Positions 19,659 to 40,894 of a stretch of 64,000 nt of DNA are shown piece after piece. Position 1 is the stretch's first letter. Each line of letters opens with the position of its first letter. The notes below the pieces were generated by a model. That model made no database searches. It saw nothing but the letters and a program-made list of their open reading frames with translations, and was not told the DNA's origin. The stretch is from positions 15,833-79,832 of the forward strand of contig JALEJQ010000008.1 in NCBI GenBank assembly GCA_022769565.1, in the 5' to 3' direction. The DNA is from Oscillospiraceae bacterium (lineage in GTDB: Bacteria > Bacillota > Clostridia > Oscillospirales > Ruminococcaceae). The position numbers and the translations under genes are program-made.

Positions 19659-19857
19659 AGTAATTTCCCTTGAGCATAATAATCTTGTACCGTAATATCA
19701 CCTATCGAATCCATTAATATCGCCGATTTTTTCGGTGTAAGCCTTGACTATCTTGCAGGAAGGACAAACTGCAAAGAGATCCGCAGGTAATATTTTGCTT
19801 CTCAATTATTATAACGCACAAAAAAGGAAATGTCTTGGACAAAAAGTCCAAATTTAC

Positions 19858-21363: not shown

Positions 21364-21381
21364 GCTTTTCTCCTCCGAAGG

Positions 21382-21798
21382 TTATAAGGTCTCTGCATTC
21401 ATATCATAAAGAAGCTCGTTCAGCTCTATTATGCTTTTATGCTCCTTTATCCCGTAAATAATGATGGAATCACGCTTGTCACGGGGGTCAAGGACTGCAA
21501 ACTTTGATATTCTCAGCAACAGCTGTGTTTCGTCCAGGGTTATCCCCATTCCCACAGCTATTGCCGCAATAACATCACGGCTGGGCTTCCGCTGTCCGCT
21601 TATGACCTTATAAACATAATCACCCTGCCCCGAATTTCTGCACACAGACGATATGCTCAGGTGCTTTTGCTCGATATAATTCTGCAGAAATTCGGAACAG
21701 GTCACATTCAAAAACTCAGACTGATACTCGTCAATAAATTTTATTATATCCTTGCTGTCAATAAGATGATGCAGCAATTCGGATGTGGCAATACTCAC
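21382..21798 (-). CDS. XRE-like helix-turn-helix protein
   Basis: GTG at 21798 preceded by AAGGAGAG. LSISSVCRNSGQGDYVYKVISGQRKPSRDVIAAIAVGMG is an HTH_3-like segment. The longer track ORF would cross a terminator and a promoter. Confidence 0.65.
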   Translation of the reverse strand: MSIATSELLHHLIDSKDIIKFIDEYQSEFLNVTCSEFLQNYIEQKHLSISSVCRNSGQGDYVYKVISGQRKPSRDVIAAIAVGMGITLDETQLLLRISKFAVLDPRDKRDSIIIYGIKEHKSIIELNELLYDMNAETL

Positions 21799-21840
21799 AG
21801 CTAACTCTCCTTCGCAAACCAAAATAATGTTGATAATTGT

Positions 21841-21869
21841 ATTATATTGCTTTTTTATGTAAAAATCAA
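21841..21869 (-). promoter_or_regulatory. sigma-A-type promoter (TTGATT-17-TATAAT) for the HTH-kinase cluster
   Basis: Minus-strand hexamers at 21864-21869 and 21841-21846 with a 17-nt spacer. Confidence 0.55.
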
Positions 21870-21874
21870 TAGCG

Positions 21875-21910
21875 TAAAAAAGGCGGAGCAGATACATTAC
21901 CTGCTTCGCC
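21875..21910 (-). terminator. intrinsic terminator of the sulfur operon
   Basis: Minus-strand GGCGAAGCAG-loop-CTGCTCCGCC followed by TTTTTT. Confidence 0.7.
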
Positions 21911-21918
21911 TTTATTAA

Positions 21919-22076
21919 TACTAATAACCAATTAACCTATGGACAAATCCGACGTCTATAATACGCCCATTTTGCGTCAAGCTCCCTTGACAGGCGGCAG
22001 CCTGCCTGCGGTCGCTTTCCTTGACTGGACGTATTCTATCCGCCGTCTTTATCCATAGAACAATTGGTTATTAGTA
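21919..22076 (-). repeat. TACTAAT-family structured element, copy B
   Basis: 158 nt, the reverse complement is collinear with copies A, C and D. Perfect outer stem AACCAATT/AATTGGTT. Confidence 0.85.
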
Positions 22077-22086
22077 TAAAATGCAA

Positions 22087-23781
22087 TTACTTATCCGACC
22101 GGATAATTACCTTTCTGTAGGTATCGAAACGCACCCATTTTTCAAAGAATGCAGAACGTCCGCTTTCGGGTGCTTCGGCGTATTCCTTGAGGAATTCCTG
22201 CACCTCACCGTCAGAGGAAGCCTTTATTTCAAAGCCTCGTCCGTTCAGCAGGGGAACGCCGCCGTAGGTGTATTTCTCCGTGGGGATAATATCCTCTATC
22301 CTTCTGTCACGAACCTTAACGGAAACTCCGTCACGCAAAACGATGATGTCAAAGCTGTCGGGGTATTTGTAGCTTTCGCCCTCGGTGGGTATCTCGTCGC
22401 CAACGGTGTACGCCGTCTTGACAGGCTGGTATTTCAGAACATTAAGGCTGCTTGTGTCATAGTAGAATTCCTCGAAAATGTCACCTCTTGCGGTAAGTCC
22501 GTCCTTTTGGAAGGAAGCCTTTTCCGTGCCGGAGCCGCCCTTTTCGCTTACCTCTTCAACAACGCCGCAGGCAGAAGTCATATTCGTTACACGGTCGATA
22601 AGGATAAACTCGCCCAGTGTCTTGTGGTTGGAAAACAGGTCGGCAGGTATTGCCTCGGCAAAAAGTATGCTGCAAACGGCAATTCCGTTCTTGGAAAGGT
22701 TCTCCGCCTTGATATGCTCCCCTGTGTTTACGTCAACGGCATATTCTATATCAGTAACAACGCCCGGGATAGTCTTTGTTCCCAGCTTTACAAGATAATC
22801 CTTGCCGGGAGTAAGCTCCTCGTCGTCCATCCACAGAACGGACGCCTTTATCTTCTTGTAGACCGCCACCTCTGCACCCTTTGCAAGGACACAGCCTCTT
22901 GAAACGTCCACTTCCTTGTCAAGGGAAATAGTTACAGGCTGTCCCTTGTAAGCGGTATCCACGCTCTTGTCGGTCATAAGTATACCCTTTACAGCCGCTC
23001 TTTCGTTGCTGGGCAGGGCAACTATCTCATCGCCCACGCTTATGCTGCCTGCTTCGATCTGTCCCTGAAAGCCTCTGAATGTGCGGTCGGGGCGGCATAC
23101 CCTCTGGACGGGCATATAAAAACCCTTTTCGCTGTCGTCCGAAGCAATGTCCACCGTTTCAAGGTATTCAAGGAGGGGAACTCCGCTGTACCATTTTATG
23201 TTATCCGACTTTTGGGTAACGTTGTCGCCTTCCGTTGCGGAAAGGGGGATTATCTGCACGTTGTTAAGGGAAAGCTCCTTTTCAAGTGCTTCTATCTGTG
23301 TGCATATCTCCTTGAAGCGTTCCTCGCTGTAGCCTACAAGATCCATTTTGTTTACGGCAAAAACAAAGTATCTTATGCCCATAAGACGGCATATCCTTGC
23401 GTGTCTTCTTGTCTGCACAAGTACGCCCTGTGAAGCGTCCACAAGTATTACCGCAAGGTCGGCAAAGGAAGCGCCGACCGCCATATTTCGTGTGTATTCC
23501 TCATGACCGGGAGTGTCCGCAACGATAAAGCTGCGGTTGTCCGTTGTAAAGTATCTGTACGCAACATCTATGGTGATGCCCTGTTCACGCTCTGCCATAA
23601 GACCGTCAAGAAGAAGGGAGTAGTCTATCTTTCCGCTTCTGCTGCCCACCTTGCTGTCAAGCTCAAGTGCCTTTTCCTGGTCGGCGTAAAGCAGCTTGGA
23701 ATCGTATAAAATATGTCCGATAAGCGTTGATTTGCCGTCGTCCACGCTTCCGCAGGTTATAAATTTAAGCAAGCCTTTCAT
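22087..23781 (-). CDS. cysN: sulfate adenylyltransferase subunit 1 (CysN GTPase) with extra 153-aa C-terminal domain
   Basis: G1 GSVDDGKST, DTPGHEEY and NKMD GTPase motifs. The CysN-type end block FILIDRVTNMTSACGVV is followed by 153 residues with no P-loop. Confidence 0.85.
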   Translation of the reverse strand: MKGLLKFITCGSVDDGKSTLIGHILYDSKLLYADQEKALELDSKVGSRSGKIDYSLLLDGLMAEREQGITIDVAYRYFTTDNRSFIVADTPGHEEYTRNMAVGASFADLAVILVDASQGVLVQTRRHARICRLMGIRYFVFAVNKMDLVGYSEERFKEICTQIEALEKELSLNNVQIIPLSATEGDNVTQKSDNIKWYSGVPLLEYLETVDIASDDSEKGFYMPVQRVCRPDRTFRGFQGQIEAGSISVGDEIVALPSNERAAVKGILMTDKSVDTAYKGQPVTISLDKEVDVSRGCVLAKGAEVAVYKKIKASVLWMDDEELTPGKDYLVKLGTKTIPGVVTDIEYAVDVNTGEHIKAENLSKNGIAVCSILFAEAIPADLFSNHKTLGEFILIDRVTNMTSACGVVEEVSEKGGSGTEKASFQKDGLTARGDIFEEFYYDTSSLNVLKYQPVKTAYTVGDEIPTEGESYKYPDSFDIIVLRDGVSVKVRDRRIEDIIPTEKYTYGGVPLLNGRGFEIKASSDGEVQEFLKEYAEAPESGRSAFFEKWVRFDTYRKVIIRSDK

Positions 23782-23783
23782 TA

Positions 23784-24683
23784 TCAGAAATACCCCTCTC
23801 TCTTGCGGCGCTCCATACTTCCTGCCGCTTCATTGTCAATAACTCTCGAAGTTCTTTCGGAGGAAACGGAGCTTAATGTTTCTGCGATTATCTCATCAAG
23901 AGTGTTAGCCGTGGATTCTATTCCGCCCGTAAGAGGATAGCAGCCCAGAGTTCTGAAACGCACCGACTTCATCTGCGGCACTTCGCCCTCTTTCAAGGGA
24001 AAACGGTCGTCGTCCACCATTATAATGTTTCCGTCACGCTCCACAACGGGGCGCTCCTTGGCAAAATAAAGGGGCACAATATCAATGTTTTCACGCTTTA
24101 TGTACTGCCAGATGTCCTTTTCCGTCCAGTTGGAAATAGGGAAAACTCTTATGCTTTCGCCCTTGTTTATTTTGGTGTTGTACAGCTTCCACATTTCGGG
24201 ACGCTGGTTCTTGGGGTCCCAAGCGTGGGCGGAATTTCTGAAAGAGAATATTCTTTCCTTGGCTCTGGATTTTTCCTCATCTCTTCTGCCGCCGCCGAAA
24301 GCTGCGGTGAAGCCGTATTTGTTGAGTGCCTGCTTGAGTGCCTGTGTTTTCATAATGTCCGTGTAGGCTGCACCGTGGTCGAAGGGGTTAATGCCCTGTT
24401 TTACGCCGTCCTCGTTGATATATTCAAGCATTTCTATGCCCAGCTTCTGCGCTGTTTTGTCACGGAACTCTATCATCTCTTTAAACTTCCATGTAGTGTT
24501 AACATGAAGGAACGGGAAGGGCGGCTTTTCGGGGTAAAAGGCTTTCATTGCAAGATGAAGCATTACCGAGCTGTCCTTTCCGATAGAATAAAGCATTACG
24601 GGCTTTTCACATTCGGCTGCGACCTCTCTTATGATGTATATCGCCTCCGCTTCAAGCTCGTCAAGGTGTGAAAATTCGTTCAC
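23784..24683 (-). CDS. cysD: sulfate adenylyltransferase subunit 2
   Basis: [18 protein letters not shown]..., the PAPS-reductase-fold [12 protein letters not shown], and the end ...[12 protein letters not shown] are characteristic of CysD. Confidence 0.9.
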
Positions 24684-24695
24684 GCTGCTTCCCTC

Positions 24696-25010
24696 CTAAT
24701 ATTTGTTGGATTCTTTGGGGTCAATATCGATGTTTGTGACCGTTCCGTCGGGGCGTTCTATTACCCAGCGGAGCAGACCCTTGCTTTTTTCGGTGTGTAC
24801 CATACTTCCCGTGCCACCGATGTCTGCGCCGAGGTAAAATTTAACGGCGTTCACGGGGCATTCCTTTACGCAGGAGGTGCAGCCCCAGCAGTCCTTGGGA
24901 TATTTTATATACGCCTTGCCCGTTTCGTCGATCTTGATAAGAGTTCCGGGACAGACTTCACGGCATCTGCCGCAGCCGACGCATTTTTCTCTGTCAATCG
25001 CAATGCTCAT
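24696..25010 (-). CDS. aprB: 2x[4Fe-4S] ferredoxin, AprB-like small subunit
   Basis: Two CxxCxxCxxxCP motifs (CVGCGRCREVCP, CWGCTSCVKECP). Overlaps the upstream flavoprotein gene by 17 nt. Confidence 0.6.
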   Translation of the reverse strand: MSIAIDREKCVGCGRCREVCPGTLIKIDETGKAYIKYPKDCWGCTSCVKECPVNAVKFYLGADIGGTGSMVHTEKSKGLLRWVIERPDGTVTNIDIDPKESNKY

Positions 25011-26676
25011 AGACCTTCTGCCCCTCCTCTGTAAGCTCTCTTAAAATGATCCTTATCTCACCGTTTTCAAGGCGTGAATTAACATATTTTCTCCAGTTTT
25101 TATCGTCCTTTTCGGGGTAGTCAAGGTTTTCCGCAAAGCTGTGCCAGCGTGTTTCCTGCCGTGCTTTAAGATGTGCGATAACGCTTCGGCACACCGTCAG
25201 ACGTTCACGCAGCTCGTAAATATACATAAGCTCCTGAAAATCGTCGGCGTGAAGTCCGTCAGAAAGTGCTTCAATGCGGCGTATCTGTTCATCGGCAAGT
25301 TCAAGCTGCTTTTCGTTGAAGCGGTAGTTTGTCTTTATGCCGCCTGCATAGGAATCCATAACTGTCTGCATAGCTTCTTCAAGCTGTTCGGCAGTAAAAC
25401 GGGAGCGGTTTTCTCCCGTAAAGCGTTCTATCTCAGCAGCGTGGGCGTTTATCTCCCTTTCTTCAATGGGAGCGCCGCTGTTTTCCGCAATATATTCCGC
25501 TGCGGAAAGCGCCGCTATCTCGCCCTCGGCAAGTGCGCCCGTAACATACTTCTGAGGGCAGCCCCCTGCAACGTCACCTGCCGCAAACAGACCCTTTATG
25601 GTGGTTGCTCTTTTTGTGTCCACCCAGTAGCCGCTTGCTGTGTGTCCGCCCACTATGTAAGGCTCTGTGCCCTCTATTTCAACGTTCTGTTCCGAGGGCT
25701 TTTTGCCGCTTTCTATCCAGCGTATGGTCTGTGAGGGAGCCATGTTAAGATATGCTTTAAGCAGGGATTCCTCCTTTTCGGGGGAGATGCCTTCGGTTTT
25801 AAGGTAACAGGGACCTCTGCCCTCGATGTTTTCCATAACGGTTCCGTAAACTCTTTCGGAGGTGGTAAGACCGTACTTGGTTTCGTAGATCTCGCCGAGA
25901 GAATTTATCTGCTTTGCGCCTGCGCCCTGTGCAAGAGTACCCGTTGGAGCGATGGTGTCCTTGCAGCGCAGAGCGATGAAACGCATTTCAAAGGTGGTCA
26001 TTTCTGCACCGTGCTTTATACCCATTGCATAGCCTGCACCGGTGTTGAAGGGGGGATACCACATCTTATGCCGTGAAAAGCCCGGGTTGTTTGGCTTGTA
26101 CAGACCTGCCGCACCGCCCGTTGCGATAATTACCGCATTTGCTTCTATAACGTAAAAAGTATCGTTTTCTATGCCTATACCGAAAGCACCGTTTATTTTG
26201 TTGTCATAAACGGAAAAGTCGGTGATGTTAACACGGTTCAGCACCGTAACATTCGGCAGCTTGCTTACTGCATCCGCAAGGATAGGCTTGATGTTTTCGC
26301 CGTTTATTTTTATGTTGCGGTTTCCTCTGGCAACGTATTTTCCGTTTTCATCTTTAAGGATAACAAGTCCAAGCTGTTCAAGCCGCTCGGTTACCTTGTT
26401 AAGGCGTTCAGACATAGTGTAAAGCAGGTCGTCGCGCACAATGCCGTCGGCGTCCTTTCTTGCATAGTCAACATAGTCCTTCGGCGTTCTGCCCTCGGTG
26501 ATGTAGGCGTTGAGGGCGTTCACACCTGCGGCAAGACAGCCGCTTCGCTTAATGTTCGCCTTTTCGCAGATAAGCACCCTTGCATCTGAATTTTCCGCAA
26601 GGGTAAGAGCCGCATAACAGCCTGCCGTTCCGCCGCCGATAATAAGTATATCAGTTTTAAGTCGTTCTGTTTTCAT
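24994..26676 (-). CDS. aprA: FAD flavoprotein, adenylylsulfate (APS) reductase alpha-like
   Basis: TDILIIGGGTAGC dinucleotide fold. KRSGCLAAGVNALNAYI and DYVDYARKD...VRDDL parallel remembered AprA blocks. Located between trxB and cysDN. Confidence 0.65.
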   Translation of the reverse strand: MKTERLKTDILIIGGGTAGCYAALTLAENSDARVLICEKANIKRSGCLAAGVNALNAYITEGRTPKDYVDYARKDADGIVRDDLLYTMSERLNKVTERLEQLGLVILKDENGKYVARGNRNIKINGENIKPILADAVSKLPNVTVLNRVNITDFSVYDNKINGAFGIGIENDTFYVIEANAVIIATGGAAGLYKPNNPGFSRHKMWYPPFNTGAGYAMGIKHGAEMTTFEMRFIALRCKDTIAPTGTLAQGAGAKQINSLGEIYETKYGLTTSERVYGTVMENIEGRGPCYLKTEGISPEKEESLLKAYLNMAPSQTIRWIESGKKPSEQNVEIEGTEPYIVGGHTASGYWVDTKRATTIKGLFAAGDVAGGCPQKYVTGALAEGEIAALSAAEYIAENSGAPIEEREINAHAAEIERFTGENRSRFTAEQLEEAMQTVMDSYAGGIKTNYRFNEKQLELADEQIRRIEALSDGLHADDFQELMYIYELRERLTVCRSVIAHLKARQETRWHSFAENLDYPEKDDKNWRKYVNSRLENGEIRIILRELTEEGQKVYEHCD

Positions 26677-26693
26677 AATTAATTCCTTTTTTT

Positions 26694-26767
26694 GAGTTTT
26701 GTGGTTTCCGTAAGGAAATCGAGGCGGCAGCCGAAGAAACAAAACTCGAAGTTTGAATTTCAAACTT
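26694..26767 (-). repeat. intercistronic structured element (pair with 31818-31900)
   Basis: GAGTTTTGT...ACAAAACTC stem enclosing TTTCCGTAAGGAAA and CGAGGCGGCAGCCGAAG, plus a second small hairpin. Lies between the trxB stop and the aprA start. Confidence 0.7.
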
Positions 26768-27682
26768 TTACCGCCTGTTCTCCGTCAGATACTTCTGAAC
26801 GGAAGAAATACTGTTTGCACCGTCCGCAGCTGCAGTTATTACCTGCCGAAGAGCCTTTGTCCGCACATCTCCTGCGGCGAAAATGCCCTTTGCGGAGGTA
26901 ACGCAGTCCTCTCCTGCAATAATATACCCGTTTGCATCAAGCTCGGCAATGCCCTTTAATGCTCCGCTATTTGGTATAGTGCCGACTGCCGCAAAAACGC
27001 TGTGAACGGGAAGAGCTTCTTCCTGTCCGTTACGGCTTATCCGCAGGGCTTCCACACGTTTTTCTCCCGTTATTTCAAGGGGAACGGCGTTAAGGATAAT
27101 TTCAATATTGCTTACCTCCGACACCTGCTTCTGAAGCAGCCTGTTTGCACGGAAAGTATCTCTGCGGTGGATAAGATATACCTTTTCGGCAGCTTTGGAA
27201 AGATATAAAGCGTCCCCGAGAGCCGTATCTCCGCCGCCTATGACCGCAGCGGTCTTGCCCTTGCAGAAAGCTCCGTCGCATACTGCGCAGTAGGACACGC
27301 CTTTGCCGGAAAACTCCGCTTCGCCCTTTATATCAAGCCTGCGGTGGGAGGCTCCTGCGGCGTAAACTATGGTTTTTGTTTCAAAAGCCGTTCCGTCTGC
27401 AAGAGTTACCTTATAACCGCTGTTTTCCGCAGAAATTTCCGAAACCTCACCCTCGTAAAACTCCGTTCCAAGAGCTTCGGCGTGGGATCTGAACCTTTCG
27501 CCGAGGTCAAAGCCGTTTTCGCCGTAAAGTCCGAGATAATTGTCCACACGCTCGCTTTCGGCTATCTGTCCCGTGCCGCCGTATTCCTTTTCGATAAGGA
27601 TAAAATCAAGCTCCGCACGTTTTGCGTAGACTGCGGCAGAAAGTCCTGCAGGACCGCTTCCGATGATTATGGTATCGTACAT
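26768..27682 (-). CDS. trxB: thioredoxin-disulfide reductase
   Basis: IIIGSGPAGLSAAVYA, redox-active CAVCDG, and GGGDTA NADPH motif. Confidence 0.9.
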   Translation of the reverse strand: MYDTIIIGSGPAGLSAAVYAKRAELDFILIEKEYGGTGQIAESERVDNYLGLYGENGFDLGERFRSHAEALGTEFYEGEVSEISAENSGYKVTLADGTAFETKTIVYAAGASHRRLDIKGEAEFSGKGVSYCAVCDGAFCKGKTAAVIGGGDTALGDALYLSKAAEKVYLIHRRDTFRANRLLQKQVSEVSNIEIILNAVPLEITGEKRVEALRISRNGQEEALPVHSVFAAVGTIPNSGALKGIAELDANGYIIAGEDCVTSAKGIFAAGDVRTKALRQVITAAADGANSISSVQKYLTENRR

Positions 27683-27686
27683 TTTA

Positions 27687-28112
27687 TTATTCCTTTTCCG
27701 TTTTTTCTATAACAAGCCCCTCATTTTCCGCAGTATCGCCGCTTATTTTAAAGGAGTTGAGAACGGGAGAGTTCCTGTCCATAAGAGAAAGAATAAGGTA
27801 GCTTGCCTTGCTGTCGAAAGCCAGCCGCTTATCCTCTTCCGAAGGCCTTGAGGGGGATTCGGGGTGTGAATGCCAGTTTCCGAGAGGCACAAGTCCCTCC
27901 GCCCTCATATCCTTTACCGCCGCAAGCTGTTCTTTCGGGTCAAGGGAAAAATGCTCGTTGGAATGGTCGGTGTTGGTGAGAAGATAGACCTTCCGTATGA
28001 GCTTTTCATCGCCCTTTATCTCTCCGGCAATAAGTCCGCAGGCTTCTTCCGGCAGACAGCTTTCGGCGTGCTTTAGAATTATTATGTAATCCGATTCCGA
28101 TATTTTTATCAT
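27687..28112 (-). CDS. JAMM/MPN+ metalloprotease (HcyD/Mec-like)
   Basis: E...HSHPESPSRPSEED matches the JAMM H-x-H-x7-S-xx-D motif. 4-nt overlap with the ThiF-like gene. Confidence 0.8.
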   Translation of the reverse strand: MIKISESDYIIILKHAESCLPEEACGLIAGEIKGDEKLIRKVYLLTNTDHSNEHFSLDPKEQLAAVKDMRAEGLVPLGNWHSHPESPSRPSEEDKRLAFDSKASYLILSLMDRNSPVLNSFKISGDTAENEGLVIEKTEKE

Positions 28113-28921
28113 AAGTGTACTCCGTCACATTCAGCCTGCTCGTAATCGATAAGCTCCGTAATAGTGGGATGCTCGCCGCATACTGCGCAGTTTTTTGTTT
28201 CCGCAGGCAGCTTTACCTTGCGGAATTCCATTTTAAGCGCATCGTATGTGAGAAGATAACCCGTAAGAAGATCGCCGACTCCGAGAATGTATTTTATTGC
28301 TTCCATAGCCTGCAAGCTGCCTATTACGCCGCCCATTGCGCCTATTACGCCTGCCTGCTTACAGGTGGGAACAGCGTCCTTCGGGGGTGGTTCTTTGAAT
28401 ACACAGCGGTAACAGGGTCCCTGTCCGGGAACGTAGGTCATAAGCTGACCCTTGAAGCGTATGATACCGGCGTGTGAGAAGGGCTTTTTCGCCATAACGC
28501 AGGCGTCGTTGATAAGGAACTTTGCAGGGAAATTGTCCGTGCCGTCAATAATGAAGTCGTAATCTGCAATAAGCTCCATAATATTTTCGCTTGTAACAAA
28601 GGTGCGGTAGGTGTTTACCTTAACATCGGGGTTCATAGCCTCCATAGTTTCCTTTGCGGACTGTACCTTTGCCTTGCCAACGTCCTTTGTGGCGTGGATT
28701 ATCTGCCGCTGGAGGTTGGAGAGGTCAACTTCGTCTGCGTCTGCAATGCCGATGGTGCCTATACCTGCCGCCGCAAGATACATTGCCGCAGGAGCGCCCA
28801 GACCGCCTGCTCCGATAATAAGCACCTTTGCATTCAGCAGCTTTTTCTGACCCTTTGCGCCAACTTCTTTAAGAATTATGTGGCGTGAGTAGCGTTCAAG
28901 CTGATCGTTTGTAAAAGCCAT
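28109..28921 (-). CDS. ThiF/MoeB/HesA-family E1-like adenylyltransferase (HcyF-like)
   Basis: RYSRHIIL..., GAGGLGAP nucleotide loop, DLSNLQRQ, and two CxxC pairs (CYRC, CAVC). Confidence 0.85.
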   Translation of the reverse strand: MAFTNDQLERYSRHIILKEVGAKGQKKLLNAKVLIIGAGGLGAPAAMYLAAAGIGTIGIADADEVDLSNLQRQIIHATKDVGKAKVQSAKETMEAMNPDVKVNTYRTFVTSENIMELIADYDFIIDGTDNFPAKFLINDACVMAKKPFSHAGIIRFKGQLMTYVPGQGPCYRCVFKEPPPKDAVPTCKQAGVIGAMGGVIGSLQAMEAIKYILGVGDLLTGYLLTYDALKMEFRKVKLPAETKNCAVCGEHPTITELIDYEQAECDGVHL

Positions 28922-29127
28922 TATCTGCCGCCTCCCATGAAATAGAGAAATTCAACGCTGTCGCCGTCCTTGATGACAGTTGAATCAAAGGCACCGCTTT
29001 CAATGAATTCATCGTTGATGGTGACCGTTACATACTGGGGTGTTTCCACATTTTCCTGCTCAATGAGCTGCGCTACCGTAAGGCCGTCAGCAGCTTCTTT
29101 TTTTACTCCTGCAACTGTGATATTCAT
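28921..29127 (-). CDS. ThiS/MoaD-family sulfur-carrier protein with C-terminal GGGR (HcyS-like)
   Basis: 68 aa, beta-grasp size. Ends ...VEFLYFMGGGR, so one residue lies beyond the Gly-Gly. The stop overlaps the E1 start. Confidence 0.75.
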   Translation of the reverse strand: MNITVAGVKKEAADGLTVAQLIEQENVETPQYVTVTINDEFIESGAFDSTVIKDGDSVEFLYFMGGGR

Positions 29128-29141
29128 AATGATCTCTCCTG

Positions 29142-29459
29142 TTATTTAAGATTTTCTATTACTGCCGCAATATCGGCTTTTTTTATTGGACTTCCAAGTC
29201 TTGAAACTTCATCGCCGTTTTTAAAGAATACGATAGTGGGAACGGAGGTTACCCCGTACTGCTCCGCAAGCTCCGTATCAAAGTTGATGTTTATCTTAAC
29301 TGCAAAAACGCTTTCGCTGTACTCCTCTTCTATCTCCGCAAGGACGGGTGAGAGCCGCTTGCAGGGAACGCAGCTGTCGGAATAAAAATCCGCAAGCACC
29401 AGTCCCTTTGCCTGCAGCACCTCGCCGCCGAAGTTTTCTCCGCTTACACGAACAGCCAT
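29142..29459 (-). CDS. thioredoxin (CVPC active site)
   Basis: 105 aa. FYSDSCVPCKRLSP sits at the canonical WCGPC position. The C-terminal VPT...F block is thioredoxin-like. Confidence 0.8.
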   Translation of the reverse strand: MAVRVSGENFGGEVLQAKGLVLADFYSDSCVPCKRLSPVLAEIEEEYSESVFAVKININFDTELAEQYGVTSVPTIVFFKNGDEVSRLGSPIKKADIAAVIENLK

Positions 29460-29705
29460 TTAATCACCGACCTTTTTTACAATAAGTGTGAATGTTCCGT
29501 CGCCGTTGTCGTTAAGTTTAAGTATCTGGTGACCCTCTTCCTTAATGCTTCTCGGCACGTTCTGTACGGGTTCGCCGTCATTCATTCTTACCGCAAGTAT
29601 CTGCCCGTCGTCAAGCTCTTCAAGCGCAACCTTTGCCTTTACAAAAGTCGTGGGGCAGACCACATCGGTTATATCCACGCTGTCGTCAATATTGAAATCA
29701 GCCAT
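29460..29705 (-). CDS. TusA/SirA-like sulfurtransferase
   Basis: 81 aa. DITDVVCPTTFVKAKVAL sits where TusA has D..G..CP.P..K. Confidence 0.65.
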   Translation of the reverse strand: MADFNIDDSVDITDVVCPTTFVKAKVALEELDDGQILAVRMNDGEPVQNVPRSIKEEGHQILKLNDNGDGTFTLIVKKVGD

Positions 29706-30558
29706 TGTAAACCTCCATTATCATCTCTGTGAATTTATCTTTTCCCACTCTGTCAAGAGTGAACTTGAATCTTTCGCCGGGATTTGCGTTCTCTGCAAAG
29801 AACTCAATTGCAGCGTCGCATATCGCAAGCAGCTTTTCCTTGTCCTCAATAAAGGGTATAACCGCTTCGCCCTTGCTTATGCTGTTGCCGAAAAGTCCGC
29901 CGAAGGAAACTATGTAGCCGTGAACGGTGTCCCAGGCTTCTGTGGGGCAGGACTTGACACATCTTCCGCAGAAATTGCACTTGCTCTCGTCAACGGTTAT
30001 TTTGCCGTCCTTTATTTCAATTGCACCGCTGCGGCAAGCCTTTTCGCACACTCCGCAGCTTATGCAGGCGTCCTCTTTCCATTTTACCTTTATGCCGCCC
30101 TTGATGCCAAGGTCGTTTTCCTCTGCTTTAAGGCAGTTGTTCTGACAGCCTGTGATGCCGAACTTGAACTTGTGGGGAAGCTCCCTTGCAAAATATCTTT
30201 CGTCAAGCTCCTTTGCAAGAGCGTAGGTGTCGATACAGCCGCTTGGACATATAGCCTCGCCCTGACAGGCTGTAACGGTGCGCACTCTCGGACCGCATAC
30301 TCCCGGTTCAACGCCGCCCTCGGCAAGAGCAGCCTTTACCTCGTCAATGTCGTCAAGCTTGATGAAGGGTATCTCCACGCTCTGTCTTGATGTAAGATGA
30401 ACGTGACCGTCGCCGAATTTTTCCGCAACCTCCGCAATTTTCGCAAGCTGAACGGCGCTCAGATTTCCTCCCACAACTCTCAGCCTGAGAGAAAAGTTAT
30501 TCTTCTGCTTCTGGCGCATAAAGCCGCCCTTTTTAAGTGTAGCGTAATCAACAGCCAT
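29698..30558 (-). CDS. small siroheme/[4Fe-4S] sulfite reductase with ferredoxin insert
   Basis: Siroheme-cluster cysteines TACQGEAIC (C-x5-C) and GCQNNC (C-x3-C). Ferredoxin insert CISCGVCEKAC...CNFCGRCVKSCP. Confidence 0.75.
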   Translation of the reverse strand: MAVDYATLKKGGFMRQKQKNNFSLRLRVVGGNLSAVQLAKIAEVAEKFGDGHVHLTSRQSVEIPFIKLDDIDEVKAALAEGGVEPGVCGPRVRTVTACQGEAICPSGCIDTYALAKELDERYFARELPHKFKFGITGCQNNCLKAEENDLGIKGGIKVKWKEDACISCGVCEKACRSGAIEIKDGKITVDESKCNFCGRCVKSCPTEAWDTVHGYIVSFGGLFGNSISKGEAVIPFIEDKEKLLAICDAAIEFFAENANPGERFKFTLDRVGKDKFTEMIMEVYNG

Positions 30559-30573
30559 ATCAATTTCCTCCGT

Positions 30574-31797
30574 TTATTTTTTTGCAGCCTGTGCAAAATC
30601 CTCAATAAGATCCTCCGGATCTTCAATTCCTATGCTTACCCTTATGGAATCATCGTAAACTCCGGCGCTTTCCTTCTGCTGCGGCGTGCTGTGGGTGTAA
30701 ATAGTGCTTGCAGGGTGTATAACAAGCGTCCGCACATCGCCGATGTTTGTGGCAATTGAAGCGTACCGCAGAGAATTTATCAGCTTAAAGGCATTTTCCT
30801 TGCTGCCTGCCCGAACAGTCAGTATCGCTCCGCCTTTTCCGCCGAACTGCTCCTTTACAAGTCCGTAATAGGGGTTGTCGGGAAGTGCGGGATAGTTGAC
30901 CTCTATTCCGGGAACGTCTTTAAGATATTCCGCAAGTTTTAAAGCGTTGGAACAGATGCGCTCCATTCGCAGCCCCAGAGTTTCAAGTCCTACCGAGTTG
31001 AGAAAAGCATTTGCAGGCGCAAGACAGCAGCCTGTGTTTCGCCATATGCCGTTCCTCAGCTTTGCAAGATAAGCCAGCTTGCCGAATTTTTCATAGCCTT
31101 CAAAGCCGGGGTACCTTGAAGTGTCCCATTTGAAGCTGCCGCTGTCGATCACAACGCCGCTTATTGCGTTTCCGCCGCCGTTTATGTACTTTGAAGAGGA
31201 GTGGACAACAATGTCTGCGCCGTATTCAAAGGGATGGATAAGATAGGGCGTTGCGGTAGTGCTGTCGGCGATAAGCGGTATGCCGCGGCTGTGTGCAAGC
31301 TCCGCAACAGACTTCACATCAACAACGTTCAGCTTGGGATTTCCGATAAGCTCAGTAAATACAGCCTTGGTTTTATCCGTTATAAGAGGCTCTATGCTTT
31401 CCGCAGTAACATCGTCCGTGAATCTTGTCGTTATACCGAATGCTTCAAGGTCTTTAAACAGGTCAAGAGTTCCTCCGAACAATCCCGAACCTGCGATTAT
31501 CTCATCACCCGATTGCAGAATGTTCAGCAAAGACATTGTAACAGCCGCCATGCCCGATGAACAGGCAACTGCGCCGATACCGTTTTCCAGAGCGGATATC
31601 CTTTTTTCAAAGGAATCAACCGTTGGATTGCTTATCCTTGAATAAGCGTAGCCGTAAGCCTTGCTGTTGAATACCGCTTCCAGCTTTTCCGCCGACTCGT
31701 GTGCAAAAGCGCTTGTCTGACAGACAGGCATTACCGTTGCACCCGTTGCAGGATCTCCGCTGAAGCTCTTATGCAGCAGAGCAGTATTGAAATTCAT
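30574..31797 (-). CDS. metY: O-acetylhomoserine sulfhydrylase-type PLP enzyme
   Basis: Cys/Met-metabolism PLP family: YSRISNPT, SSGMAA, and the PLP lysine block HSSSKYINGGGN. Confidence 0.85.
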   Translation of the reverse strand: MNFNTALLHKSFSGDPATGATVMPVCQTSAFAHESAEKLEAVFNSKAYGYAYSRISNPTVDSFEKRISALENGIGAVACSSGMAAVTMSLLNILQSGDEIIAGSGLFGGTLDLFKDLEAFGITTRFTDDVTAESIEPLITDKTKAVFTELIGNPKLNVVDVKSVAELAHSRGIPLIADSTTATPYLIHPFEYGADIVVHSSSKYINGGGNAISGVVIDSGSFKWDTSRYPGFEGYEKFGKLAYLAKLRNGIWRNTGCCLAPANAFLNSVGLETLGLRMERICSNALKLAEYLKDVPGIEVNYPALPDNPYYGLVKEQFGGKGGAILTVRAGSKENAFKLINSLRYASIATNIGDVRTLVIHPASTIYTHSTPQQKESAGVYDDSIRVSIGIEDPEDLIEDFAQAAKK

Positions 31798-31817
31798 ATT
31801 TTAAATCATTCCTTTTT

Positions 31818-31900
31818 GAGTTTTGTGGTTTGCGAAGCAAATCGAGGCGACAGCCGAAGAAACAAAACTCGGAGTTTAAAAATCGAAGATTTTTAAATTT
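31818..31900 (-). repeat. intercistronic structured element (pair with 26694-26767)
   Basis: Same GAGTTTTGT...ACAAAACTC frame, with inner hairpin TTTGCGAAGCAAA (compensated relative to TTTCCGTAAGGAAA). Lies between the cysA stop and the metY start. Confidence 0.7.
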
Positions 31901-31916
31901 ATCACCGATTTCTGTT

Positions 31917-32975
31917 TTAGATAAATACCGATTCTTCCTGAATAGTCTTGTTTTCAAGAAGATAGGTCTTTTCGCCTGCCGTAACGAACATACGGTATAT
32001 GAACACATCTACCTTTTCTCCGACGGAAACAACATTTTCATCAAAGCCCCGTCTTGCGTTAAGAAGTACGCCGTTGACCCTGACGGAAAGCTCTATGCTG
32101 CTTCCTCTGAATGATACCCGTTCCACAACTCCCTCGGAGGAGGAGCTTCTGTATTTCTGCACCTCGTTTTTCTTTGATACCTTGATAAATTCGGGGCGCA
32201 CTATGGCGTTTTCCGCTCCCTCGATCTTGTCAAAGGTGTGGAAGCTGCCGTACTCCTTGAAAATGGAGGGCTGACCGAAAAATGAAGCGGTAAAAGCGGT
32301 CTCGGGCTTGCTGTAGACCTCCGCAGGAGTGCCTATCTGCTCGATGCGTCCCTTGTTTGTAATGATTATCTCATCCGCAACCTCTATGGCTTCGTCCTGG
32401 TCGTGGGTAACGAAAATGCTTGTTACTCCCAGCTTGCTTATCATATCCTTCAGCCAGCTGCGAAGCTCCTGCCTGACCTTTGCGTCAATGGCGGCAAAGG
32501 GTTCGTCAAGAAGCAGCAGCTTGGGGTTAGGAGCAAGTGCTCTTGCAAAAGCAACTCTCTGCCGCTGACCGCCTGAAAGCTGACTTGGATAACGCTTTTC
32601 CAGCCCTTCAAGTCCTATGAGCTTCACAAGCTCGGAAACTCTTTCTTTTATGAACTCCTTGTCCTTTTTCTGCACCTTTAGTCCGAAGGCAATGTTGTCG
32701 TAAACCGTCATATAGCGGAAAAGGGCGTAATTCTGGAACACAAAGCCTATGCCTCTTTCGCTTGCGGGAACGTTGTTCACTACCTTGCCGTTAATGATTA
32801 TCTCGCCGCTGTCGGGCGTTTCAAGACCTGCTATCATTCGGAGAATGGTGGTCTTGCCGCTGCCGCTGGGACCTAAAAGTCCTATCAGCTTGCCCTCTTC
32901 AATGCCGAAGCTTACGTTGTCGGAGGCTTTGTAGCTGCCGAAATTTTTATTTATGTTTTTCAGTTCAACGTACAT
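31917..32975 (-). CDS. cysA: sulfate/thiosulfate ABC transporter ATP-binding protein
   Basis: Walker A GPSGSGKTT, signature LSGGQRQR, Walker B LLLDEP, and a C-terminal regulatory TOBE-like domain. Confidence 0.9.
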   Translation of the reverse strand: MYVELKNINKNFGSYKASDNVSFGIEEGKLIGLLGPSGSGKTTILRMIAGLETPDSGEIIINGKVVNNVPASERGIGFVFQNYALFRYMTVYDNIAFGLKVQKKDKEFIKERVSELVKLIGLEGLEKRYPSQLSGGQRQRVAFARALAPNPKLLLLDEPFAAIDAKVRQELRSWLKDMISKLGVTSIFVTHDQDEAIEVADEIIITNKGRIEQIGTPAEVYSKPETAFTASFFGQPSIFKEYGSFHTFDKIEGAENAIVRPEFIKVSKKNEVQKYRSSSSEGVVERVSFRGSSIELSVRVNGVLLNARRGFDENVVSVGEKVDVFIYRMFVTAGEKTYLLENKTIQEESVFI

Positions 32976-33798
32976 TTTCCGACTCTCTCTTTCCTATGTA
33001 TTCCACAACGCTTTTTGCGATAAGTATCAGCACCGCCATCATTACCAGTATGGAGGACACCGCAAAGGCAGGAACATACTTGAATTCGTTGAAAAGTATC
33101 TCAACGTGGAGAGGAAGGGTGTTTGTCTTTCCTCTCAGATGTCCCGAAAGAACGGACACCGCTCCGAATTCTCCCATGGCTCTTGCCGCACAAAGCACTA
33201 CGCCGTAGAGGAACGCCCATTTGATATGGGGAAAGGTTATTTTTGTGAATATGGTAAAGCCTTTAGCTCCCATAAGTGCCGCAGCCTCTTCCTCGTCCGT
33301 ACCCTGCGATTCAAGTACGGGTATAAGCTCTCTTGAAATAAAGGGGAAGGTCACGAAAACCGTTGCAAGAATAATTCCGGGCACCGCAAAAACTATCTTT
33401 ATGTCCAAGCTTTCAAGCAGAGGATAAAGGGGACTTTGCCGTCCGAAGGTCAGCACGAATATCAGACCTGCAATGACGGGGGATACCGTTACGGGAAGGT
33501 CGATAAGTGTGCAGAGCAGCTTTTTTCCCTTGAAGCGGAACTTTGTCACCGCCCACGCCGCAAAAAGCCCGAACACCGTGTTCACCGCAACTGCGCAGAG
33601 CGTTGCTTCAACGGTAAGCAGTATCGCTTTGACCGTGTATTTGTCCGCAACAGCCTTTATGTATACCTCAAAGCCTTGTTTCAGTGCCTCGGCAATTACC
33701 GTTATAAGAGGAAGCACAAGCATAAGGAATACAAATATGACGCTTATGCTTATAAGCAGTATCTTTACTGCCTTGGAGCCTTTTGATTCCTTATGCAC
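32965..33798 (-). CDS. cysW: sulfate ABC transporter permease
   Basis: BPD-type permease with an EAA loop (EEAAALMGA). Position and size match CysW. Confidence 0.85.
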   Translation of the reverse strand: MHKESKGSKAVKILLISISVIFVFLMLVLPLITVIAEALKQGFEVYIKAVADKYTVKAILLTVEATLCAVAVNTVFGLFAAWAVTKFRFKGKKLLCTLIDLPVTVSPVIAGLIFVLTFGRQSPLYPLLESLDIKIVFAVPGIILATVFVTFPFISRELIPVLESQGTDEEEAAALMGAKGFTIFTKITFPHIKWAFLYGVVLCAARAMGEFGAVSVLSGHLRGKTNTLPLHVEILFNEFKYVPAFAVSSILVMMAVLILIAKSVVEYIGKRESENVR

Positions 33799-33799
33799 A

Positions 33800-34642
33800 T
33801 CAGTTTCCCCCTTTGAGTATTTTTGAATTTCTTATCTGAATGAGATTTACAAGAAAAAGTATAAGGAATGAAGCAAAAAGCATTACAAGAGCTATCGCCG
33901 AAGCACTGGAGTAGTCGTATTCCTGAAGCTCCGACATGATTATCAGCGGCGTTATTTCCGTTTCGTAGGGCTTGTTTCCTGCGATAAATACAACGCTTCC
34001 GTATTCGCCGAAGCATCTTCCGAACGCAAGACCGAAGCCTGTGAACACCGCAGGCATTATCTCCGGGAAGATAACTCTGCGGAAGATCTTGCCTCTGTCC
34101 GCTCCAAGCACCACAGCCGCTTCTTCATATGCAGGGTCAAGCTTTTCAAGCACCGGCTGGACAGCTCTTACCACAAAGGGGATCCCGATAAATACCATTG
34201 CAATGGTTATTCCTATCCTTGTGTAAGCTATCTTTATGCCGAACCTGCTAAAGAAACCGCCGACAAGACCCGTATCCGCCGTCAGAGAGGTAAGGGCAAT
34301 GCCTGCTACCGCCGTGGGCAGAGCAAATGGCAGCTCGATCATTCCGTCCAGCAGACGCTTGAAGGGAAAATCGTATCTCACCAGCACCCAAGCAAGGACA
34401 ACTCCCATAACTGCGTTAATGAGCGAAGCTATAAAAGCTGTGATGAAGCTCACCTCGAAGCTGGCGAGAACTCTCGGTCTTGTTATGGTGTCTATCACAT
34501 CCGAAAGGCTCATATTTGCGGCAAATACCGCAAGCGAAGCCAGAGGGATAAGCACTATCACGCTGAGTACCGAGAGCGTTACGCCCATTGACAGCCCGAA
34601 TCCGGGGATAACTCTCTTATTTGCTCTCTTCATTTTCATCAT
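33800..34642 (-). CDS. cysT: sulfate ABC transporter permease
   Basis: BPD-type permease with an EAA loop (YEEAAVVLGA). ATGA overlap with the sbp stop. Confidence 0.85.
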   Translation of the reverse strand: MMKMKRANKRVIPGFGLSMGVTLSVLSVIVLIPLASLAVFAANMSLSDVIDTITRPRVLASFEVSFITAFIASLINAVMGVVLAWVLVRYDFPFKRLLDGMIELPFALPTAVAGIALTSLTADTGLVGGFFSRFGIKIAYTRIGITIAMVFIGIPFVVRAVQPVLEKLDPAYEEAAVVLGADRGKIFRRVIFPEIMPAVFTGFGLAFGRCFGEYGSVVFIAGNKPYETEITPLIIMSELQEYDYSSASAIALVMLFASFLILFLVNLIQIRNSKILKGGN

Positions 34643-35682
34643 TCCGATTTTTCGTAAATTTCATCGAACACTCCGCCGTCGGCAAAGTGCTTTGTCTGAG
34701 CCTCGTCCCAGCCGCCGAAATCCTGTATTGTAACAAGATTTATGTCAAGGTTGAAAACTCCAGCGTATTCCTGAAGTATATCTGCGTTAGAGGGTCTGTA
34801 GTAGTTGTCGCCTGCGATACGCTGCGCTTCATCGGAATAGAGGTACTGCAAATATTCGGCAGCAACATCTCTTGTTCCTCTGTCATCAACTACCTTGTCA
34901 ACGACAGCAACGGAGGGCTGTGCAAGAATACTTACGCTCGGTGTGATTATCTCATAATCGTCGGGATAGTCCTGAATGGAAAGGTAGGCTTCGTTCTCCC
35001 AGGCAAGAAGAACATCACCCTGTCCGTTTTCAACGAAGGTCGTGGTAGCGCCTCTTGCACCGGAATCAAGCACCAGAACGTTCTGATAGAGCTTCTTGAC
35101 AAAGTCCTTTATCTGAGCCTCATCGCCGCCGTACAGCTTGTCGGCATATGCCCACGCTGCAAGGTAGTTCCACCTTGCGCCGCCTGAGGTCTTGGGGTTG
35201 GGAGTAATAACGCCCACGCCGTCATTCACAAGGTCGTTCCAGTCCCGGATGTTCTTGGGATTGCCTTTTCTTACAAGGAAAACGATTGTGGAGGTGTAGG
35301 TGGAGCTGTCGTTGGCAAATTCGCTTACCCAACCGTCCTCGATAAGTCCTGCATCTCTTATGGCGTTTACATCATACTCAAGAGCAAGGGTAACAACATC
35401 CGCTTCAAGACCGTTTGCAACTTCAAGCGCCTGCTTGCCTGAGCCGCCGTGGGACTGTGTTATCTCAACGTCCTGTCCTGTCTTTTCCTTCCAATGCTCG
35501 GCAAATATCTTGTTATAGGCTTCGTAAAGCTCTCTTGTGGGGTCGTATGAAACATTGGTTATTGAAACGCTGTCGACGGAGCCGCTTGCTTCGCCCTTTT
35601 CCGAAGAGCAGCCTGTAAGTCCGGTCATTCCGGTAATAAGAAGTGCGGCTGCTACAGATATTTTCACAAAATTATTTTTCAT
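34639..35682 (-). CDS. sbp: sulfate-binding lipoprotein
   Basis: Lipobox LTGCSS. SHGGSGKQA and the family-wide NPKTSGGARW block are typical of Sbp/CysP. ATG at 35682 follows GGAAGG. Confidence 0.85.
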   Translation of the reverse strand: MKNNFVKISVAAALLITGMTGLTGCSSEKGEASGSVDSVSITNVSYDPTRELYEAYNKIFAEHWKEKTGQDVEITQSHGGSGKQALEVANGLEADVVTLALEYDVNAIRDAGLIEDGWVSEFANDSSTYTSTIVFLVRKGNPKNIRDWNDLVNDGVGVITPNPKTSGGARWNYLAAWAYADKLYGGDEAQIKDFVKKLYQNVLVLDSGARGATTTFVENGQGDVLLAWENEAYLSIQDYPDDYEIITPSVSILAQPSVAVVDKVVDDRGTRDVAAEYLQYLYSDEAQRIAGDNYYRPSNADILQEYAGVFNLDINLVTIQDFGGWDEAQTKHFADGGVFDEIYEKSE

Positions 35683-35872
35683 AATAAAAAACCTTCCTTT
35701 CACGGCTTGAAAATCATTTTTCAGACCGTTTGCTTCGTTTGATGTTTGTTTTGTTGTCCGCAAAAAATTTTTAACATCGTCCGCAGCGGAAGTTCGCTCT
35801 CAGGAGCGTTTCAAACATATTTTTCATATTCTTTCCCTCAATTCTTACCAACCTACTTGGTAGGTTAGGTTT

Positions 35873-35901
35873 AGTATAACATTATTTGCCTACTTTGTCA
35901 A
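35873..35901 (-). promoter_or_regulatory. sigma-A-type promoter (TTGACA-17-TATACT) of the sulfur operon
   Basis: Minus-strand -35 at 35896-35901 and -10 at 35873-35878. The palindrome AACCTACttgGTAGGTT at 35850-35866 lies just downstream. Confidence 0.6.
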
Positions 35902-36018
35902 TAGGAATTTAGTATTTTATCCAAGATAGTTATGTTTGTACAAAGGTTTCCTGCAAATTTTTGCATTTTATGTCAAATTTTCCGAAAAATACTGCTGTGC
36001 TACGCCGTTTTTCCCGAT

Positions 36019-36064
36019 ACAAAAACAGGCGCAATTCACATTGAATTTCGTGTGAATTGCGCCT
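36019..36064 (-). terminator. intrinsic terminator of the proBA-containing transcription unit
   Basis: Minus-strand 14-bp stem AGGCGCAATTCACA/TGTGAATTGCGCCT followed by GTTTTTGT. Confidence 0.65.
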
Positions 36065-36066
36065 TA

Positions 36067-36226
36067 TATTAATAACCAATTGTTCTATGGATAAAGACGG
36101 CGGATAGAATACGTCCGGTCAAGGAAAGCAACCGCCGCAATGCTTGGTGCCTTGCAAGGGGAGCTTGACGCAGAATGGGCGTATTATAGACGTCGGATTT
36201 GTCTATAGGTTGATATGAACTTAGTA
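36067..36226 (+). repeat. TACTAAT-family structured element, copy C (degenerate termini)
   Basis: The core is near-identical to copy B. The left terminus is TATTAAT and the right outer stem is lost. It abuts the stop codon at 36227-36229. Confidence 0.8.
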
Positions 36227-37186: not shown

Positions 37187-37196
37187 TCTATCACCG

Positions 37197-40797: not shown

Positions 40798-40852
40798 TAC
40801 TAATTCTAAACCCTAATTCTAAATCGTTCTATAGGTTGATTTGAATTTAGTA
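40798..40852. repeat. TACTAAT-family collapsed remnant (F)
   Basis: Consists of TACTAAT, then GTTCTATAGGTT (left and right arm motifs fused), then TTTAGTA. Confidence 0.6.
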
Positions 40853-40894
40853 TTATAACTGTGAGCCTGCTTCGTGAACTGCGCTTATTTTACC

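Follow-up and report, generated by a model that had tools for sequence, protein, structure and literature searches.

Krishnamoorthy and Begley reportedly described in 2011 a protein-thiocarboxylate pathway to methionine in Wolinella succinogenes, in which MetY is said to make homocysteine and HcyD to have a dual role. The biochemistry of this pathway is cited in passages of three later papers (PMC8191291, PMC6225789 and PMC6271081). The neighbourhood type was described by Iyer, Burroughs and Aravind in 2006 (PMC1779556, Table 1, row 4e), who list a ThiS/MoaD-like protein, a JAB protein, a rhodanese-free E1, sulfate ATP-binding cassette (ABC) transporters, ATP sulfurylase, sulfite reductase and O-acetylhomoserine sulfhydrylase, always accompanied by SirA/TusA, in Geobacter metallireducens, Wolinella and six Firmicutes, with Clostridium thermocellum, Alkaliphilus, Caldicellulosiruptor, Carboxydothermus and Desulfitobacterium named among the latter. 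Here we compare with these systems a 16-gene operon on the minus strand of a 64,000-nucleotide stretch of DNA from an Oscillospiraceae bacterium of gut or rumen (contig JALEJQ010000008.1), hereafter the window.

Judged from its sequence, the operon is probably one transcription unit for sulfate uptake, sulfate reduction and the building of homocysteine on a ubiquitin-like sulfur carrier, in the manner of the W. succinogenes HcyS pathway. Families were assigned by Pfam and NCBIfam profile searches of all 16 proteins, which in order of transcription are as follows; the reductase encoded by the aprAB-like pair would act on adenosine 5'-phosphosulfate (APS) or 3'-phosphoadenosine 5'-phosphosulfate (PAPS).

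34639..35682, minus strand: sbp, sulfate-binding lipoprotein (NF008022, 469 bits; TIGR00971, 432 bits; lipobox LTGC)
33800..34642, minus strand: cysT, sulfate ABC transporter permease (TIGR02139, 364 bits; cut-off 246)
32965..33798, minus strand: cysW, sulfate ABC transporter permease (TIGR02140, 346 bits; cut-off 329)
31917..32975, minus strand: cysA, sulfate ABC transporter ATPase (TIGR00968, 352 bits; cut-off 343; TOBE_2 domain)
30574..31797, minus strand: metY, O-acetylhomoserine sulfhydrylase of the short-loop type, 407 residues (PF01053, E = 7.5e-111)
29698..30558, minus strand: sir, small siroheme sulfite reductase, 286 residues, with an inserted 2x[4Fe-4S] ferredoxin domain (NIR_SIR_ferr, NIR_SIR and Fer4)
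29460..29705, minus strand: tusA, TusA/SirA-type sulfurtransferase (PF01206, 68.5 bits; Cys17 within a CP..FVK.K motif)
29142..29459, minus strand: trx, atypical thioredoxin (PF00085, 83.5 bits; CVPC active site)
28921..29127, minus strand: thiS, HcyS-type sulfur-carrier protein of ThiS fold, C-terminus FLYFMGGG-R (PF02597)
28109..28921, minus strand: thiF, HcyF-type E1-like adenylyltransferase, 270 residues, without a rhodanese domain (PF00899, 296 bits)
27687..28112, minus strand: jamm, HcyD-type JAMM/MPN+ metalloprotease (PF14464, 87 bits)
26768..27682, minus strand: trxB, thioredoxin reductase of the NADPH type (TIGR01292, 328 bits; cut-off 343; CAVC and HRRDxxRA)
24994..26676, minus strand: aprA-like flavoprotein subunit of an assimilatory APS or PAPS reductase (NF005331, 963 bits)
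24696..25010, minus strand: aprB-like 2x[4Fe-4S] subunit, 104 residues (Fer4 families; TIGR02060, 60 bits)
23784..24683, minus strand: cysD, small subunit of sulfate adenylyltransferase (NF009214, 520 bits)
22087..23781, minus strand: cysN, GTPase subunit of sulfate adenylyltransferase (TIGR02034, 533 bits over residues 5-408)

The motifs expected of active enzymes are in place. The cluster and siroheme cysteines of Sir are intact, as are the GxGxxG motif, two CxxC motifs and Cys187 of the E1, whose only domain is ThiF, and the Glu...HxHx7Sx2D metal site of the JAMM protein (HSHPESPSRPSEED). The thioredoxin lacks the Trp before CVPC and scores 88 bits against a cut-off of 97 for the equivalog model TIGR01068. 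No cysE, cysK, cysH or cysC was found among the 16 genes by the same family searches.

All 16 open reading frames (ORFs) are intact, spanning 22087-35682, and they are tightly packed. Overlaps join sbp/cysT (4 nucleotides, 34639-34642), cysW/cysA (11, 32965-32975), sir/tusA (8, 29698-29705), thiS/thiF (1, at 28921), thiF/jamm (4, 28109-28112) and aprA/aprB (17, 24994-25010); jamm and trxB lie 4 nucleotides apart (27682/27687), and the other junctions are spaced by 0-15 nucleotides, with the exception of cysA/metY (119) and trxB/aprA (91). Two signals frame the unit.

35873..35901, minus strand: promoter of the sigma-70 type, TTGACA-17 nucleotides-TGnTATACT (11 of 12 positions plus the TG extension)
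21873..21913, minus strand: intrinsic terminator of the operon (interrupted 15-bp stem at 21879-21913, then U6; -19.8 kcal/mol, z = -4.8)

The promoter is the top site within the 18 kb scanned (20000-38000), and orthologous loci keep its -35/-10 pair 5' of their first gene. The gene upstream ends at a strong terminator of its own, at 36027-64 (-22.6 kcal/mol), so that the operon is bounded on both sides. An initial annotation of this DNA had proposed 16 co-directional genes lacking cysE, cysK, cysH and cysC, one promoter, one terminator and the junctions given above; all of this is borne out, the junctions exactly, and the profile searches confirm each of its family calls. Two start codons had to be moved: sbp, which had been started at TTG 35763, most likely begins at ATG 35682, where the lipoprotein signal with its LTGC lipobox starts, and aprA most likely begins at ATG 26676, where the gene caller placed the start in locus L001.

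Is this arrangement a chance juxtaposition? Relatives were sought by scanning one genome per species; of the best 80 loci, 47 had enough flanking DNA for counts, and the fetched loci (L001-L083) reach up to about 20 kb each. The genes metY, tusA, thiS, thiF and jamm are present as co-directional neighbours in 47 of the 47, while sir is found in 34, trx in 32, cysDN in 27-28, aprAB in 25-27 and the transporter genes in 16-19. With five genes in every locus and the others in part, the operon is a modular assembly around an invariant core, metY/tusA/thiS/thiF/jamm. The complete set of 16 genes recurs in the same order and direction in nine species-level genomes; the arrangement is not due to chance. 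The nearest genome is Oscillospiraceae SARD13_bin.033 (L002), at 94-100% protein identity.

For a direct comparison, the W. succinogenes MetY sequence was rebuilt from the 3RI6 alignment and led to an identical database protein (P0121), whose contig was set beside the window. The Wolinella cluster runs cysH-cysD-cysN-hcyS-hcyF-hcyD-sir-cysG, with metY divergent. The window's proteins are 41% (HcyS), 58% (HcyF), 50% (HcyD), 40% (MetY) and 40% (TusA domain) identical to their counterparts, and the carrier ends in FLYFMGGGR where Wolinella HcyS ends in FLYFMGGGA. Against HcyS the window carrier scores 63.5 bits, compared with 14.6-18 bits against the ThiS proteins of E. coli and T. thermophilus and CysO of M. 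tuberculosis; the E1 scores about 195 bits against both E. coli ThiF and MoeB. A tail follows the GGG in 120 of the 120 closest carrier homologues (Q in 60, R in 45, longer tails in the rest), which explains why a JAMM partner is obligatory. Another member of this carrier subfamily, ending in GGGK, is the 'ThiS' of Geobacter whose structure is 2K5P. MetY points the same way in its architecture: the window enzyme and Wolinella MetY (PDB 3RI6) both have 407 residues and share a shortened loop that follows residue ~225. Four other solved MetY-type enzymes have 9-10 additional residues in this loop, and a second, 432-residue paralogue from Wolinella has about 25. A natural fusion of MetY and ThiS also exists (database protein P0157, 478 residues, PF01053 plus PF02597) and is a Rosetta-stone link between the two proteins.

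The two clusters therefore share a carrier of the FLYFMGGG-plus-one type, a rhodanese-free E1, a JAMM protease, a 407-residue short-loop MetY, a TusA module, a siroheme Sir and cysDN, and the earlier proposal that the operon mirrors the Wolinella HcyS, HcyF, HcyD, MetY and Sir set holds in sequence identity and conserved gene context. They differ in their reductive modules and accessories. Wolinella has CysH (PAPS_reduct family) where the window has the AprAB-like enzyme. Its Sir is a large, two-repeat protein of the NirA/CysI type (764 residues) with a C-terminally fused TusA, whereas that of the window has 286 residues and a separate, translationally overlapping tusA, and is not of an orthologous type. 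The Wolinella cluster includes a siroheme synthase gene and lacks trx, trxB and a sulfate transporter, and its CysN (459 residues) has no C-terminal domain of the kind described below.

Several points weigh against so direct an equation. MetY scores 314 bits against Wolinella MetY, as opposed to 381 and 359 bits against MetY enzymes that use sulfide, and it keeps a classical IHPAST motif that Wolinella MetY has lost; being no closer to Wolinella overall and retaining this motif, it might use free sulfide. The NCBI model names the carrier 'ThiS' (TIGR01683, 60.7 bits, cut-off 37.45), the E1 just exceeds the ThiF model (TIGR02356, 275.9 bits, cut-off 275.25), and the closest characterised relative of AprA is PAPS-specific. 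Some relatives have a separate promoter for metY, so internal starts are possible in this operon too. For this organism, and for any member of the Clostridia, the pathway appears to be known from genes alone.

Could MetY then simply carry out conventional direct sulfhydrylation with free sulfide from Sir, leaving ThiS/ThiF/JAMM/TusA to thiamin thiazole, molybdopterin, tRNA thiolation or SAMP/TtuB-like conjugation? We consider this very unlikely, even though MetY as a whole resembles sulfide-using enzymes and models of the Prokaryotic Genome Annotation Pipeline type call the carrier ThiS; below or near their cut-offs, such models also pair the E1 with MoeB, ThiF and UbaA and the JAMM protein with 'desampylase'. 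The thiamin ThiS/ThiF system does share Pfam families (PF02597, PF00899) and adenylation chemistry with the window. However, the window carrier resembles HcyS far more than it does true ThiS proteins (14.6 bits against that of E. coli), and, unlike thiamin ThiS, it has a residue past its Gly end and needs a protease, traits of the Hcy and CysO systems. Within the operon and the ten genes scanned beside it there is no thiG, thiH, thiC, moaE, ttuA or E2-like gene, and no thiO was found there either. Moreover metY adjoins the carrier genes in every one of the 47 loci, and a MetY-ThiS fusion protein exists. A placement of the two homologues, ThiS and ThiF, among enzymes for thiamin or molybdopterin was named at the outset as a result that would overturn the carrier pathway; score comparisons show no such placement.

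The product of a carrier route might also be cysteine, alone or with homocysteine, if the MetY-type enzyme accepted O-acetylserine or O-phosphoserine. The M. tuberculosis CysO/MoeZ/CysM/Mec+ system (PMC6225789) follows the same logic as the window's, with a carrier thiocarboxylate, a pyridoxal phosphate (PLP) enzyme and a releasing JAMM hydrolase. The best NCBIfam family for MetY is the bifunctional 'O-acetylhomoserine aminocarboxypropyltransferase/cysteine synthase' subfamily TIGR01326, and the operon lacks cysK and cysE. Yet the TIGR01326 score (436) falls under the cut-off of 495, and the PLP enzyme of the window belongs to the Cys/Met gamma family (PF01053), not to the CysM/CysK fold used in M. 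tuberculosis, where substrate and product differ, the E1 carries a rhodanese and CysO, at 16 bits from the window carrier, ends in GG. Wolinella MetY, which has been characterised and sits in an equivalent cluster, reportedly makes homocysteine. A cysteine-forming role therefore seems improbable to us.

How would sulfur travel from sulfate to homocysteine in this operon? In the scheme that we propose, sulfate is imported by Sbp-CysTWA, whose family membership is clear, and converted to APS by CysDN, as homology predicts. The AprAB-like enzyme, a flavo-iron-sulfur protein by family, would reduce APS to sulfite, and the small siroheme Sir would take the reduction further. In parallel the JAMM protease would remove the C-terminal Arg of the carrier and expose its Gly terminus, a step suggested by the invariable extra residue and the Wolinella precedent, whereupon the E1-like enzyme would adenylate that terminus. 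The carrier thiocarboxylate (carrier-COSH) could then form in either of two ways, with sulfide delivered by Sir or with a TusA persulfide, the resulting acyl-disulfide being resolved by Trx/TrxB. Finally, as reported for Wolinella, MetY would join carrier-COSH to O-acetylhomoserine, an S-to-N acyl shift would follow, and the JAMM protease would release homocysteine.

The initial annotation had assumed free sulfide as an intermediate; the invariant TusA and the Trx encoded in the cluster also allow a persulfide relay. A TusA persulfide is a plausible sulfur donor because TusA is invariant, the E1 is free of rhodanese, and sir and tusA overlap here and are fused in Wolinella; direct attack by sulfide fits the window equally well. 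As to the thioredoxin, its gene always lies between tusA and thiS. That Trx and TrxB accompany the carrier core and not Apr proved only partly true: trx occurs in 29 of 34 loci with sir against 4 of 13 without, and in 24 of 26 loci with apr against 9 of 21 without, and so tracks sir and apr, not the bare core. Trx could have the TusA/carrier acyl-disulfide, Sir or Apr as its partner.

The nature of the reductase's substrate deserves closer attention. The described relative is the PAPS reductase of the methanogen Methanothermococcus thermolithotrophicus (MtPAPSR; PMC10322725), a member of the same AprAB-like family, for which K120, R121 and S122 are proposed to bind the 3'-phosphate. The window's AprA-like subunit scores 626 bits against the MtPAPSR alpha subunit (8A8O_A) and 288 bits against the dissimilatory AprA of A. 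fulgidus, the beta subunits have 104 residues in both enzymes (8A8O_C), and TIGR02061, the equivalog model for dissimilatory aprA, is not passed (326 bits, cut-off 642). Genes of the qmo, dsrAB and sat kind are absent, and the reductase is linked to the assimilatory cysDN. The likeness to the methanogen extends to Sir, whose best match of solved structure is the C-terminal, sulfite-reductase half of the F420-dependent sulfite reductase Fsr (7NPA, 137 bits); the F420-binding half is missing from the window protein.

These scores make it possible, though in our view rather unlikely, that the enzyme is a PAPS reductase supplied by an APS kinase encoded elsewhere in the genome. The Arg of K120/R121/S122 is kept, and neither Gln of the dissimilatory Q-W-Q is present. 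The methanogen, however, has an APS kinase and a 3'-phosphoadenosine 5'-phosphate (PAP) phosphatase and owes its PAPS specificity to the K-R-S loop, whereas no APS kinase was found in the window or in the 83 loci by tblastn and a P-loop motif search, although about 27 of these loci hold cysDN and aprAB together. The P-loop motif search served as a second check on the search with E. coli CysC. An APS kinase concealed in the extension of CysN or nearby was likewise rejected, as there is no P-loop and no match. The corresponding loop of the window's AprA reads N119-R120-N121, and this N-R-N recurs in 34 of 36 related loci, none of which has an APS kinase nearby. In addition, CysN carries another domain where CysNC fusions carry CysC. 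Because no kinase was found, APS is probably the substrate. The general sulfate-to-homocysteine route first put forward for this operon stands, but its step from APS to sulfite is insecure in view of 626 versus 288 bits.

The domain that occupies the place of the kinase has no Pfam family.

22090..22521, minus strand: C-terminal domain of CysN, ~140 residues (residues 421-564)

It has 142 clusters among 1.84 billion representatives; it is C-terminal in the full-length matches (~560 residues), and most other matches are short fragments. AlphaFold2 (32 sequences) gives it a confident fold (pLDDT 92, pTM 0.84), for which Foldseek found no neighbour in the PDB (best E = 1.3, TM 0.23). Nearly every cysN with linkage to the AprAB-like reductase encodes it, and it stands at the position of APS kinase in CysNC fusions. 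We would guess that it docks or channels APS.

Upstream of sbp, three further elements suggest how the operon might be controlled.

35889..35905, minus strand: candidate operator CCTATTGACAAAGTAGG, overlapping the -35 box and found by motif conservation
35852..35864, minus strand: second palindrome CCTACCAAGTAGG, just 3' of the predicted transcription start, seen in the sequence
35771..35827, minus strand: conserved upstream small ORF MKNMFETLLRANFRCGRC, 18 codons and a stop, in the ~185-nucleotide sbp leader, found by peptide conservation

The motif CCTATTGAC-N3-GTAGG lies 5' of whichever gene opens the cluster, sbp or metY, in about 35 species loci, and its recurrence suggests that it is probably the operator of one regulator common to these sulfur operons. 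The palindrome CCTACCAAGTAGG is kept with at most one change in L002, L004, L009 and L069. The leader ORF encodes a peptide, (L/V)RAN(F/Y)RFGRC, that is preserved in eight related genomes through mostly synonymous codon changes, one Arg position being CGC, AGA, CGG or CGT; L022 differs at three residues (VGTDYRFGRCQ), and more distant relatives lack the ORF. Its last codons, GGA CGA TGT, are invariant, and the Cys codon ends it. On this pattern of conservation it is a candidate for a leader or arrest peptide that senses cysteine supply, and expression would probably be set by a repressor site over the promoter together with this ORF. The leader and the internal gaps were also searched for a riboswitch, and the idea was rejected: Rfam at gathering thresholds gave no match in the whole window, and E-value scans of the leader and one gap returned sub-threshold noise only.

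These elements could be joined into a tighter mechanism, which we put forward as a speculation and regard as unlikely to hold in full. Free sulfide would never be released: sulfur would pass from the small Sir, whose translation is coupled to that of TusA, to a TusA persulfide and on to the adenylated carrier, with the CVPC Trx and TrxB resolving the acyl-disulfide. The CysN C-terminal domain, replacing a fused APS kinase, would dock CysDN to the AprAB-like reductase and channel APS, thereby pulling the unfavourable sulfurylase reaction, and the whole operon would be adjusted to cysteine supply by its conserved leader peptide, of the arrest type and with a terminal Cys.

What is new here is the lineage, the non-orthologous reductive modules and some unexplained accessories, while the kind of pathway itself is known. 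The list of Iyer and colleagues (PMC1779556) has PAPS reductase and adenylylsulfate kinase, not an AprAB-like reductase; thioredoxin and thioredoxin reductase are not on it, although the legend to the network figure abbreviates a pyridine disulfide oxidoreductase domain, and neither the CysN extension nor the leader ORF is mentioned. A search of the literature library for work joining thiocarboxylate and O-acetylhomoserine found nothing on Clostridia. The initial annotation's view that the pathway is uncharacterised in Clostridia is thus correct for its biochemistry, but the neighbourhood has been observed there since 2006 (PMC1779556). It had also counted AprAB-like, Trx, TrxB and TusA proteins as extra parts. 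The first three are indeed absent from the Wolinella cluster; TusA is not an extra part, since it is fused to Wolinella Sir and always present in the neighbourhoods of 2006.

What are the implications for the organisms that carry such operons? The pathway was missing from MetaCyc and KEGG as of 2017 (Price et al. 2018; PMC5764234), so that methionine sulfur assimilation is probably misread in metabolic reconstructions and auxotrophy predictions for these members of the microbiome, and public annotation labels the HcyS-type carrier 'ThiS'. The pathway may also affect the amount of free sulfide that such bacteria release. The operon offers targets for study in the role of TusA and Trx, the specificity for APS or PAPS within the AprAB-like family, the CysN domain and the candidate cysteine-sensing leader peptide.

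The carrier subfamily occurs in at least 587 species-level genomes, mostly of gut and rumen Clostridia, including Ruminococcus callidus, R. bicirculans, Blautia spp., Hominimerdicola, Ruminococcoides and Lachnospiraceae, with Fibrobacter succinogenes and one Thermoguttaceae genome beyond them. The closest relatives of the carrier are annotated 'sulfur carrier protein ThiS' in Oscillospiraceae metagenome-assembled genomes. The Oscillospiraceae proteins share 89-91% identity (E1) and 74-76% identity (carrier) with those of L051, L057, L060, L071 (Fibrobacter) and L077 (Thermoguttaceae); such closeness across phyla suggests recent horizontal transfer in gut or rumen, or mis-binned contigs. A variant cluster was seen in Lachnospiraceae (L006, L011, L038, L042, L044, L045, L054, L062, L066, L068 and L080). 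It comprises metY, sometimes a second JAMM gene, a second E1-like gene (38-44% identity), thiS, thiF and jamm; tusA comes next in all but L080, where the locus ends near that point. The variant lacks trx and apr throughout, and sir except in L045.

The two larger gaps within the operon are filled by copies of one repeat.

31798..31875, minus strand: ~76-nucleotide structured repeat between cysA and metY, a three-way junction
26677..26752, minus strand: second copy of the ~76-nucleotide structured repeat, between trxB and aprA, a three-way junction

The next relatives are without them at these junctions (L002, L004 and L009 in the case of cysA/metY), so that the ancestral operon was even tighter. 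Further copies occur at differing junctions of the same operon in other genomes, with compensatory base changes (L002 12376-12451, L064 7187-7263, L017 7235-7311 and L022 10225-10301); none was found in the flanking DNA searched. Both window copies end 3' in a Shine-Dalgarno-like AAAGGAA, and the best Rfam match, TD-2 (RF03162), is sub-threshold and on the antisense strand. A conserved regulatory RNA was considered and rejected, as the repeat is missing at these junctions in the next relatives and lies elsewhere in L017, L022 and L064. It resembles a small structured element that is mobile, not a permanent component of the operon.

The GC content of the region reveals no island. A low-GC stretch (38-42% against about 47% elsewhere) was noted at 16000-20000, and within it an ORF of 865 residues at 17061-19658 on the minus strand, without a Pfam match. 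Hairpin-forming inverted repeats of ~175 nucleotides flank the operon at 21915-22088 and 36055-36229. They were considered as the ends of a transposon or invertible segment, and this was rejected, for further copies lie in the window, at 5953-6129, 60260-60427 and, in part, 40828-40857, as well as in L002 and L017. The repeats are thus a dispersed palindromic family, similar to miniature inverted-repeat transposable elements (MITEs) or repetitive extragenic palindromes (REPs), and not an operon boundary.

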